A stretch of 64,000 nt of DNA from a virus (taxonomy: Duplodnaviria > Caudoviricetes). Below, in pieces: positions 7,960 to 10,902 of the stretch (positions within the stretch are counted from its first letter, which is position 1; each line of letters starts with the position of its first letter). The notes below the pieces were generated by a model that was not told the DNA's origin, did no database searches, and saw nothing but the letters and a program-made list of their open reading frames with translations. A program made the translations under genes and the position numbers. The stretch lies in IMG/VR virus record IMGVR_UViG_3300033076_001247, positions 10,123 to 74,122 of that record. One strand, written 5' to 3'.

Positions 7960-8265
7960 ATGCTCGGAGACGAACACAAGGCGACGGTCGACGGCTACGC
8001 CCGCTCGGTGCTCGAGGCATGGGCGAGCGACGGTCGGCCGATGGCGGAGTTCGCCGAGAGGGCAGGGCTGACGCCGCAGGCGGTCTCCCAGATACGGCTC
8101 GGCCAGTGGGGCGTCGGCATGAAGGGGCTGCGCGGCTTCTCGCACGCGCTTGGCGTCACGCTGTCGGACTTTGAGGAGCGCGCCCTCGCCTGGCACGCAG
8201 CGGGTCGGCCGCCGCTCGGGCCGGAGGCGCTGGCGGGTGTCAGCGTGCAGGGAGGTGGGAAGTGA
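7960..8265 (+). CDS. XRE/Cro-like HTH regulator
   Basis: MAEFAERAGLTPQAVSQIRLG...FSHALGV; first gene of the divergent unit. Confidence 0.8.
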   Translation: MLGDEHKATVDGYARSVLEAWASDGRPMAEFAERAGLTPQAVSQIRLGQWGVGMKGLRGFSHALGVTLSDFEERALAWHAAGRPPLGPEALAGVSVQGGGK

Positions 8266-9026
8266 AGGTCGGCTTCGTCGCCTGCTCGTCGAGCAAGCTG
8301 ACCCGCGCCGCCCCGGCGTGGCAACTCTACACCTCGCCGTTGTTCCGGCTGTCAGTTGCATACCTGACGCAGAAGGTCGGCGTCGACCGCTGGTACGTCC
8401 TGTCCGCGAAGCACGGGCTCGTCGCGCCGGAGACGGTCATCGAGCCGTACGACGAGACGCTGACGAAGCTCGGTAAGGCCGAGCGCGCGGCGTGGGGCGA
8501 GCGTGTCGCCGAGCAGATCTACGCCGAATGGCGGAAGTGCGGCACCGACTGGCGCATGCAGGTGCTCGCCGGCAATAGCTACTGCCAGCCGCTTCGCGCG
8601 GCGTTGAGCGCCAAGGTCAATCCGTTCAAGGTCATGCGCCACCTCGGCTTCGACGAGCCGCTCGACGGGAAGGCCATCGGCGAGCGGTTGCAGTGGCTGT
8701 CGAGCGAGCTCGGGCGCGACGACAATGCCGCGCGCAAGTCGGGCGACCTCGACGAGCTGATGCGGCAAGTCCACTGGCATTACCCGTGGGGAACGGCGCG
8801 GGGGCAGTACGCGGTCGTCGACGGGGTGCCGGTGACGGTCTCGAAGCGAGGCTTGGAGTGGGCCGTCGAGGTCAAACGACTGACCGGCGCCCCGATGATG
8901 GCGACGGCCGCGACGGGCAAGGACGCGAAGGCTGCGGCGATTCATGCGGTTCGCGCTGGCGCGTGGCTGGTAACGGGCTATCGGACGACCTGGCACGAGC
9001 CGGCGGTCGAGGGAGGCGACGAATGA
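8262..9026 (+). CDS. DUF6884-like protein with C-terminal extension
   Basis: VACSSSK....A..LYTSPLF...WYVLSAKHGLV.P...IEPYD.TL pattern. Confidence 0.7.
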   Translation: MKVGFVACSSSKLTRAAPAWQLYTSPLFRLSVAYLTQKVGVDRWYVLSAKHGLVAPETVIEPYDETLTKLGKAERAAWGERVAEQIYAEWRKCGTDWRMQVLAGNSYCQPLRAALSAKVNPFKVMRHLGFDEPLDGKAIGERLQWLSSELGRDDNAARKSGDLDELMRQVHWHYPWGTARGQYAVVDGVPVTVSKRGLEWAVEVKRLTGAPMMATAATGKDAKAAAIHAVRAGAWLVTGYRTTWHEPAVEGGDE

Positions 9027-9211: not shown

Positions 9212-9519
9212 AACCCATCACCTGGACCTTCCCGCACGGCCACGTTCGCGACGGGCGGATATCTCGGTTCGCCGGCACGGCGTACGACGGGCGCATCGAG
9301 ATCGAGATGGTCGGCTCGGCGCCTGACGGGTGGTGCGCGCTGCTGTACCGGCGCGGGTCGCCGCTGCCGGCGGTCACGCTGTCGATGTCGGGACCGTCGG
9401 TGGTGCCGCTGCAGAACGCGATGCAGGTCGTCGTCGAGCGACTGATGCGGGCCGAAGGCGCGGACGGCGTCATCGAGGACGCGGACAACGAGAGGCTGGC
9501 GGCTCGGGGGATGCTGTGA
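9208..9519 (+). CDS. Hypothetical protein
   Basis: Coupled at both ends. Confidence 0.6.
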   Translation: MKPITWTFPHGHVRDGRISRFAGTAYDGRIEIEMVGSAPDGWCALLYRRGSPLPAVTLSMSGPSVVPLQNAMQVVVERLMRAEGADGVIEDADNERLAARGML

Positions 9520-10187
9520 CCGAGCGTAAGCTCCGCATCGGGTCGCTGTTTGCCGGCGTCGGTGGGTTCGACCTCGGCTTTGAGCGAGCGGGTTTTGAGA
9601 CGGCATGGGCCGTCGAGATTGACGAGAAGGCGCAGGCCGTCCTACGGCTGCGGTTCCCGAGGGCCGAATTGCACGACGACGTGACGAAGATCGGAGCGCA
9701 CAACCTCGGGCCGGTCGACGTGATCACCTACGGTTTTCCATGCCAGGACCTCTCGGTCGCCGGCAAGCGCGCGGGCCTCGACGGCCAGCGCAGCGGACTT
9801 TTCCATGAAGCAGTTAGAGTTATTCGCGAGCTTCGGGCGCGCGACGGCAAGCCAGATATCGCCATCGCCGAGAACGTCCCCGGACTTTTCAGCAGCAACG
9901 CTGGCCGAGACTTTGCTGTCGTCCTCCAAACGCTGGTCGACGTCGGGGCGCGTGACGTCGCGTGGCGAGTGCTGGACAGCCAGCACCACGGAGTCGCTCA
10001 ACGCCGCCGTCGCGTGTTCATTGTCAGCGATTTTGGAGGCGAACGCGCCGCAGAAATACTTTCTCTCGCCGAGGGCGTGCGCGGGGATTCTGCGCCGCGC
10101 CGCAAAACGAGGAAAGGCGCTCCCGCCGCTGCTGGAGCAGGCGCTCCGAGCAGTCTGCGAATCGACGGAACAGGGGGGGGGGATTAG
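9516..10187 (+). CDS. C5-cytosine DNA methyltransferase, N-terminal (alpha) polypeptide, motifs I-VIII
   Basis: SLFAGVGG, GFPCQD, ENV, QRRRRVF; ends just after the G10 tract. Confidence 0.92.
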   Translation: MTERKLRIGSLFAGVGGFDLGFERAGFETAWAVEIDEKAQAVLRLRFPRAELHDDVTKIGAHNLGPVDVITYGFPCQDLSVAGKRAGLDGQRSGLFHEAVRVIRELRARDGKPDIAIAENVPGLFSSNAGRDFAVVLQTLVDVGARDVAWRVLDSQHHGVAQRRRRVFIVSDFGGERAAEILSLAEGVRGDSAPRRKTRKGAPAAAGAGAPSSLRIDGTGGGD

Positions 10188-10902
10188 CGGCGCCGTGAGT
10201 TGCAAGTGGGCCAAAGGGACCGGCGGGCCTGCGGGCGACGAGTATCAGAACCTCGTCGCGACCGAGACGGTCGGCACCTTGTGCAGCGACACGCACCCTG
10301 GTGCGTACTCGGGTCAGGACGCCTACACGGGGCGGCTGGTGCCGATGAAGGCGAAGGACGAGACGGTCGCCTGTTACGACTACCTCGGATCGCATGGTGG
10401 TGGCGTCGAGGTGGGCATTAGCCCGACGTTGAAACGGAAGGACGGCGTTGCGGTGACTGTCCCGGTTGCCTTCCGTATCTACCCCGGCCAGCCGACAGAA
10501 GGACGTGCCGCTGAGTTGCATGCATGCGAGACGGACATAGCAAACGCCGTGACCGTGACCGAGCACGCGCGCTCAACCGACAGAGGAACGAGAGTCGTTT
10601 GCGCGACGGGCGACATCACCCACACTCTCGACGGCGCTCACGGTGCAACCGAAGACGGCACAGGCAGAGGCACGCCGATTGTGCCAACCCCGCGCATGGC
10701 GGTGCGAAGGCTGATTCCCAGAGAGTGCTCAAAACTGCAGGGATTTTCTCCTGACTGGAACGCTGAGGGCGTCGACAAGGCGGGCAAGCGCATCGTCATG
10801 GCCGACTCGTCGCGGTACAAGCAGATGGGTAACGCAGTCACCGTCAACGTCGCGCAGGCCGTCGCGGAGCGCGTAGCGATGGTGCTGGGAAGGCAGTCGT
10901 GA
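9805..10902 (+). CDS. C5 MTase overlapping-frame (beta-like) polypeptide carrying the variable region and motifs IX-X
   Basis: SLSAILE..PQKYFLSPRACAGILRRA..RGK.LP overlapping the alpha frame; RRLIPRECSKLQGF and RYKQMGNAVTVNV at the C-terminus. Confidence 0.85.
   Translation: MKQLELFASFGRATASQISPSPRTSPDFSAATLAETLLSSSKRWSTSGRVTSRGECWTASTTESLNAAVACSLSAILEANAPQKYFLSPRACAGILRRAAKRGKALPPLLEQALRAVCESTEQGGGISGAVSCKWAKGTGGPAGDEYQNLVATETVGTLCSDTHPGAYSGQDAYTGRLVPMKAKDETVACYDYLGSHGGGVEVGISPTLKRKDGVAVTVPVAFRIYPGQPTEGRAAELHACETDIANAVTVTEHARSTDRGTRVVCATGDITHTLDGAHGATEDGTGRGTPIVPTPRMAVRRLIPRECSKLQGFSPDWNAEGVDKAGKRIVMADSSRYKQMGNAVTVNVAQAVAERVAMVLGRQS
10173..10182 (+). repeat. G10 homopolymer at the alpha/beta frame junction
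   Basis: ACA-GGGGGGGGGG-ATTAG; the only G run of this length I noticed. Confidence 0.9.

Follow-up and report, generated by a model that had tools for sequence, protein, structure and literature searches.

A nested reading frame and a frame-setting G tract in a phage C5-cytosine methyltransferase gene

Phage cytosine methylases, which guard phage DNA against restriction by the host, are universally annotated as simple single genes. The stretch of DNA analysed here, 64,000 nucleotides (nt) from a virus of the Caudoviricetes (IMG/VR record IMGVR_UViG_3300033076_001247, positions 10,123 to 74,122; hereafter the window), carries at 9516-10902 a cytosine methylase gene whose conserved motifs are distributed over two overlapping reading frames, with ten consecutive G residues (G10; 10173-10182, read directly in the window DNA) at the junction. 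This raises the question whether the gene is miscopied in the assembly, decayed, or a working methylase made of two chains. We consider that it is probably an orphan phage C5-methyltransferase in a two-chain state, set by a hypermutable tract.

The upstream open reading frame (ORF), alpha' (Table 1), contains motifs I (FxGxG), IV (PCQ), VI (ENV) and VIII (QxRxR), by which C5-cytosine DNA methyltransferases are recognized, and 9516-10184 matches PF00145 at profile positions 2-160 (E-value = 1.8e-49) and TIGR00675 (E-value = 2.9e-47). Motifs IX-X are located on the second ORF, beta, which matches PF00145 only at the C-terminal positions 272-322. The two frames overlap by 383 nt, and beta runs 715 nt past the alpha' stop. 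Removal of one G joins alpha to the downstream part and gives a single chain of 461 amino acids (aa), as in full-length relatives; only with such a G9 tract are motifs I-VIII and IX-X on the same polypeptide, and the nested ORF then ends at about 130 aa in the third frame ('...GGGLAAP*', where asterisks mark stops). With G11, motifs IX-X are left untranslated. The initial annotation had read the locus in this way for all three tract lengths, and its coordinates and readings were all correct. With no endonuclease adjoining it, the gene is, as judged by its motifs and surroundings, an orphan phage C5-cytosine methyltransferase, on a 74-kb IMG/VR record. The start of the alpha chain in relatives reads MTERKLRIGSLFAG, and the start of beta is also shared, with the relatives P0366, P0369 and P0373 being called from a methionine that matches ATG 9805 (M[KR]QLALFENF...).

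To characterize the overlapping frame, which had been described as conserved-looking, the window +1 peptide (9868-10170) was used as a tblastn query, and matches were obtained in 169 phage records, far beyond chance. In the four records checked (4/4), the match fell in the +1 frame of a methylase annotated as a single chain, where it covers motif VIII and the linker that follows. The frame was established by offset for mycobacteriophage Omega gp127, and both by offset and by translation for Vibrio phage 1.009.O, phage P1 dmt and a Ruminococcus phage. In phage P1 dmt (L013:949-1434; NC_005856.1 about 66713-67198), the nested +1 ORF stays open for ~160 codons, reads ...NTSEWHNDADACLLSQVLEQTSIPQRYFLSSKACAGILRRGEKRRKSLPPLLQMAL... 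and is unannotated in the record. We then surveyed 80 further IMG/VR loci of the family; the comparisons use the 59 loci in which the motif VIII anchor AWRVLD was found, phage P1 dmt included (GC content 34-68%). The +1 frame was open for at least 55 codons upstream and at least 66 codons downstream of AWRVLD in 59/59 loci, including genomes of 34-45% GC, and the third frame met stops within 3-35 codons in most of them. The nested consensus is ...GKTSPExS...SxxWxxSG...GExLTLNTSExPN...SLSQILE...PxKYYLSxKACxGILRRAxxRGKxLPxxLxxAL, usually followed by a stop 5-20 codons on, with near-invariant residues Y85, L87, S88, A91, G94, I95, L96, R97, R98, A99, L106 and P107. The window shares the hallmark of this family, a +1 ORF that spans motifs VI-VIII plus the linker and contains KY[YF]LSxKACxGILRRAxxRGKxLPxxLxxAL. 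The distant canonical methylases L099-L101, taken as a negative control, are without the nested frame.

Comparison with synonymous shuffles that preserve the alpha protein revealed that, over a fixed 121-codon stretch, the 59 real loci contain 1 stop in total, while the shuffles contain 1.99 per locus; the score of the +1 frame against its hidden Markov model is 132.8 bits for real loci versus 44.7 bits for shuffled ones. In the linker, mean pairwise identity is 0.58 in the nested frame versus 0.28 in alpha, while over motif VIII it is 0.68 in alpha versus 0.47 in the nested frame. Between the window and L001, an independent IMG/VR contig with 92% DNA identity, 10/14 substitutions in a 135-nt linker stretch, which overlaps the most conserved part of the nested domain, are silent in the nested frame only and 2/14 in alpha only, and the sum over independent close pairs is ~80 versus ~30. 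At the nested start, a stop is retained in gut-type loci together with a GAGGT Shine-Dalgarno-like motif that an ATG follows after nine bases, and many other loci have a purine-rich motif ahead of a post-stop ATG. These comparisons indicate that the +1 frame is a real, family-wide coding frame, under purifying selection between the window and L001. That it belongs to the family at large, and is not particular to the window gene, was absent from the initial annotation.

Proteins of the nested frame are also widespread. Searched against 1.84 billion representatives, a profile of the nested domain (A5) matched 6136 clusters (E<=1e-3). Of the 150 best clusters, about 43 were at least 250 aa long, mostly with the nested domain at the N-terminus, and all of the long proteins tested (9/9) carry only the C-terminal (IX-X) part of PF00145, as beta does. 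Therefore, fusions between the nested domain and the C-terminal half of a methylase are common in nature. Beta-type proteins were present in JGI, ENA, Logan and NCBI contigs, and the beta ORF is intact in relatives down to 72% identity (P0007 and P0373).

A comparison of homologs, proposed in the initial annotation, was carried out for the tract, with lengths read from DNA for the window and L001 and inferred from protein termini for the rest of the close group. G10 is not unique to the window, since L001 also has G10, and the same length is implied by the terminus GTGGGD* in P0282, P0284, P0354, P0358, P0359 and P0360. Two chains are also implied by G7 in P0357 (GTGGD*) and by G13 in P0283 (GTGGGGD*), whose partner P0364, located on the same contig of 75.6 kb, reads EQGGGGISGAV. 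A single chain is implied by G6 in P0355 (GTGGISGAV) and by G9 in P0356, P0003, P0005 and P0006 (GTGGGISGAV), and one natural allele, P0361, is of the G11 type (GGGGLAEP*) and OFF. A productive frame is thus present in 15 of the 16 sequences, ten of them two-chain and five single-chain. Contingency loci are recognized by a coding homopolymer of at least 7 bases that sets the frame, which G10 is, and by length differences among near-identical sequences; here members of clusters of at least 90% identity differ at the junction, as inferred from their proteins. The slipped-strand switch suggested by the initial annotation fits these implied lengths, and neither pseudogene decay nor one isolated assembly error would be expected to produce such a pattern. 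The tract context, used as a scan pattern, was matched in IMG/VR by the contig of L001 only and in JGI metagenomes by one unrelated sequence. Additionally, P0355, P0356, P0364 and P0371 all end in ...YDYLGTQ[GR]GG inside the target recognition domain (TRD), though P0364 is internal to the 75.6-kb contig, and this points to another break or tract within the sub-clade.

The full-length relatives P0003, P0005, P0006, P0009, P0010 and P0012 (438-502 aa) keep the alpha frame through the linker. In P0003, P0005 and P0006 the junction reads '...RIDGTGGGISGAVSCKW', also '...R[IV]DGTGGGISGAVSCKW...', which is the window sequence minus one G and agrees with the ~461-aa methylase that had been predicted for G9. 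A frame shift directly after motif VIII was also considered and was rejected, the full-length relatives holding the alpha frame through the linker. In a sister clade of P0010 and P0012 (P0285, P0287-P0291 and P0294), shortened alpha forms end in ...SKWAKGGGASR*; these ends fit one extra G in a second G run, inside the conserved KGGGPAGDE motif, which may be a second switch site.

Tracts at the same junction were also detected in two unrelated clades. In a clade of 43% GC, L046 (G7) is a single chain, while in L056 and L066 (G8) the nested frame and the C-terminal half form a fusion; around the site, L046 and L056 share 99.4% identity, and they differ there, G7 versus G8, at the DNA level. Similarly, in another clade L049 (C9) is a single chain and L044 (C10) is fused. 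Within the 90-nt junction window, the 59 loci have 12 runs of at least 7 G or C, versus 15 in their remaining 300 kb, an enrichment of ~45-fold (Poisson P-value about 2e-16, which is optimistic as the loci are related). In Mycobacterium phage Omega, gp127 and gp128, given as two methyltransferase genes, are a single member of the family, interrupted at a G8 tract (NC_004688.1 about 68566-68573; L011:1734-1741): past the tract, the frame with the conserved PVAALTANGVGTCGADDNQAQAGHL motif lies one base off, and one more G would join it. Motifs IX-X of gp128 are back in the gp127 frame; therefore at least two frame changes have occurred there.

On this basis, the preferred reading of the window gene is as follows. 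Genes of the family carry a second conserved +1 frame nested over motifs IV/VI-VIII and the post-VIII linker. With G10, two chains would be made, alpha' (223 aa, motifs I-VIII) and beta (365 aa, nested domain, TRD and motifs IX-X), the latter with a separate translation start, most likely ATG 9805. These chains would assemble into an active enzyme in the manner of M.AquI, which is plausible because natural two-chain C5 enzymes exist and fragments of monomeric ones complement each other. With G9 or G6, a single-chain enzyme and a free nested protein of ~130 aa would be produced, which is the usual layout of the family, and with G11 the enzyme would be OFF. The tract would be a hypermutable slipped-strand site by which phage lineages shift among these states, possibly frequently and adaptively, and a minor amount of single-chain enzyme could also arise from the G10 allele if the ribosome or RNA polymerase slips on the run. 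The initial annotation had also proposed that a switch might toggle specificity; nothing speaks in favour of this, because the same TRD serves both productive states.

Several observations weigh against the two-chain reading. The Shine-Dalgarno motif upstream of ATG 9805 is weak. Foldseek gave no match with a model of the nested domain, and the model of beta matched M.HhaI weakly and in the IX-X part only. AlphaFold2 (AF2) was confident only for the last ~50 nested residues and for IX-X; the first 70 residues of the nested domain were modelled without confidence, and the models show no docking (these residues might fold only on a partner). In addition, most tract lengths in the close group come from protein termini, and the P-values are optimistic throughout, as the loci behind the statistics are phylogenetically related.

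Among the other explanations, the one that survives best, although it is unlikely as the primary account, is that G10 is a recoding site, at which ribosomal or transcriptional slippage yields some single chain while switching at the DNA level is secondary. A tRNA-Gly can re-pair one base on within the G run, a stop follows immediately (GAT TAG), and tracts recur at exactly this junction. However, near-identical relatives differ in length at the DNA level, as seen directly in L046 and L056 or inferred from proteins; no stimulatory element was found, none having been searched for; and G/C runs are poorer sites of transcriptional slippage than A/T runs. Recoding is compatible with the two-chain explanation and does not exclude it.

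Pseudogene decay, in which a frameshift would have disrupted the methylase and put it out of use, is improbable. Its frame is indeed broken relative to the single-chain relatives, and further breaks occur in the family (Omega gp127/gp128 and L004-L008). However, the 365-codon beta ORF is intact here and even in relatives at 72% identity, purifying selection acts on the nested frame between the window and L001, beta-type fusions occur commonly in nature, and productive alleles (15/16) exceed the proportion of about two thirds expected by chance.

Still less probable is an assembly or sequencing error in the homopolymer, by which the true gene would be G9 and an ordinary single chain, with the nested ORF still present. 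Although homopolymers are error-prone and the full-length P0003, P0005 and P0006 read as G9, G10 was found again in the independent contig L001, the G10-type frame occurs in at least 10 further contigs (JGI, ENA, Logan and NCBI) as alpha' or beta proteins, and the G7 and G13 variants hold the same frame. Finally, the idea that conservation of the +1 frame is a by-product of methylase-frame conservation (motifs VI-VIII) and codon bias, with no second gene, can be regarded as refuted for practical purposes: alpha-preserving shuffles do keep their 44.7 bits, 10.6% of them stay open, and over motif VIII only 2-4 identities are possible per nested residue, but linker conservation is twice as high in the nested as in the alpha frame, linker substitutions are mostly silent in the nested frame, the frame is open even at 34-45% GC, a stop, a Shine-Dalgarno motif and an ATG are conserved at its start, and thousands of nested proteins have been called, including fusions to IX-X.

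Table 1. Features of the methylase locus in the window (all on the + strand).
Feature	Position	Remarks
alpha' ORF, 223 aa	9516..10187	GTG start; motifs I-VIII and linker; TAG 10185-10187 directly after the G tract
motif I, FAGVGG	9549-9566	alpha frame
motif IV, PCQ	9738-9746	alpha frame
beta ORF, 365 aa	9805..10902	+1 frame; nested domain, through G10, TRD, motifs IX-X; TGA 10900-10902
nested domain	9805..10182	+1 frame; over alpha motifs V-VIII and linker; belongs to family-wide nested ORF (phrog_16143)
motif VI, ENV	9870-9878	alpha frame
motif VIII, QRRRR	9999-10013	alpha frame
most conserved part of nested domain (SLSAILE..KYFLSPRACAGILRRAAKRGKALPPLLEQALRAV)	10018..10176	three helices predicted; AF2 pLDDT (predicted local distance difference test) 90-96
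G10 homopolymer, frame-setting tract	10173..10182	also G10 in L001; length series among relatives
variable region (TRD) and motifs IX, X	10183..10902	under G10 in frame with nested ORF
motif IX, RRLIPRECSKLQGFSPDW	10705-10758	+1 frame
motif X, GNAVTVNV	10828-10851	+1 frame

The methylase lies among tightly packed small phage genes of unknown function (phrog_5935 and phrog_1048), and the gene upstream (8262-9026) matches phrog_5935 and phrog_5436, also of unknown function. Starts and stops around the methylase overlap (GTGA at 9516-9519, containing the stop of the upstream gene, and GTGA at 10899-10902), which suggests translational coupling within an early-gene module. No promoter-like or terminator-like sites were found near the methylase. 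A scan of GTDB genomes revealed no close relative, and hence no host is indicated.

In addition to the junction tracts, other frame breaks were observed in the family. In L016, L027, L035, L039, L041, L045, L052, L053, L059, L060 and L070, the main frame mostly stops 100-130 codons past AWRVLD, while in L041, L045 and L053 this stop comes after 36-63 codons. In those inspected (L016, L035, L059 and L070) it lies shortly past a conserved GG[DV]LGGG motif. Motifs IX-X of this set follow 100-200 codons further in another frame, except in L059, where they are in the same frame after the stop. Another kind of split and an inserted element are both candidate readings. Some family members also switch frame between motifs V and VI: in L004 (2986-3606), the nested peptide shares its frame with motifs I-V, and VI-X use a different one, and L006 has the same shift plus a further frame change.

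A wider interpretation can be put forward tentatively: the +1 protein may be an unannotated subunit that phage C5-methyltransferases of a very large family, P1 Dmt included, need for their function, and the homopolymers, having evolved repeatedly at the end of the nested gene, may be selected contingency switches among three architectures, tuning or gating anti-restriction methylation. We consider this possible, without favouring it. If a second protein is encoded inside these genes, the annotation of thousands of phage genomes, including P1 and Omega, misses a gene, and constructs that recode the methylase frame would destroy it. A mutable tract that reshapes subunit structure would amount to phage-borne phase variation. 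Such genes would also be a source of naturally split methylase pairs for targeted methylation, a field of engineering that has until now depended on M.EcoHK31I and on artificial splits.

The searchable literature held nothing relevant on a nested gene in phage methylases or on phase-variable phage cytosine methylases; the only precedents in it are M.EcoHK31I and M.AquI, and the known kinds of system to which the locus relates are split or nested C5 methylases and simple-sequence contingency loci. M.AquI (CYCGRG) of Agmenellum quadruplicatum is described as a two-subunit C5-methyltransferase whose split falls within the variable region (Karreman and de Waard 1990; Pinarbasi et al. 2002, via PMC3404938), and complementation between fragments is described for monomeric C5 enzymes (PMC3404938, PMC2836561). 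The window genes have the M.AquI-type split layout as defined in PMC3404938: in the G10 state motifs I-VIII likewise lie on one chain, IX-X and the remainder of the variable region lie on the other, and the break is in the variable region. Unlike in M.AquI, the beta gene overlaps that of alpha' by 383 nt in the +1 frame and contributes a conserved nested domain of ~125 aa, a homopolymer decides whether the enzyme is split, and the gene is a phage orphan with no adjacent endonuclease.

M.EcoHK31I (YGGCCR) is described as an alpha/beta C5-methyltransferase in which beta is encoded in another frame inside alpha (Lee, Kam and Shaw 1995, via PMC2836561, PMC3404938), with beta supplying motif IX and alpha keeping the TRD and motif X. 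The analogy with this enzyme, drawn in the initial annotation, holds in part: a second polypeptide also comes from another frame within the gene of the catalytic subunit, and under G9 the nested ORF would lie wholly inside alpha. However, the G10 beta is not contained within alpha' but extends 715 nt past it, and the analogy is only partial because the nested part (9805-10182) carries no motif IX; in the window it is beta that carries the TRD, IX and X. Closer in layout, though not by sequence comparison, are L067 (2176-2771), L081 and L083, in which the nested frame runs into motif IX (VRRLTPTECERLMGYPDGWT) and the main frame has X without IX. When an EcoHK31I-like nested ORF was searched against plasmids by tblastn, P1-like dmt genes were the only matches.

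Among protein families, the window nested domain matches phrog_16143 ('DNA methyltransferase', a 139-aa profile; E-value = 4e-10), while Pfam and NCBIfam contain no family for it. Unlike the description given here, phrog_16143 is an annotation-derived family, for which nesting in the +1 frame of phrog_116-type methylase genes is not stated.

Bacterial phase-variable methyltransferase and restriction-modification genes contain poly-G/C simple-sequence contingency loci, and some form phasevarions (cf. PMC5700931, PMC5084427). The window gene resembles them in that a coding homopolymer, varying in length among close relatives, sets the reading frame. It differs from them in that the locus is phage-borne, the tract is located at the end of an overlapping gene, and two of the three frames are productive, with the alternatives being different subunit architectures rather than plain ON and OFF.

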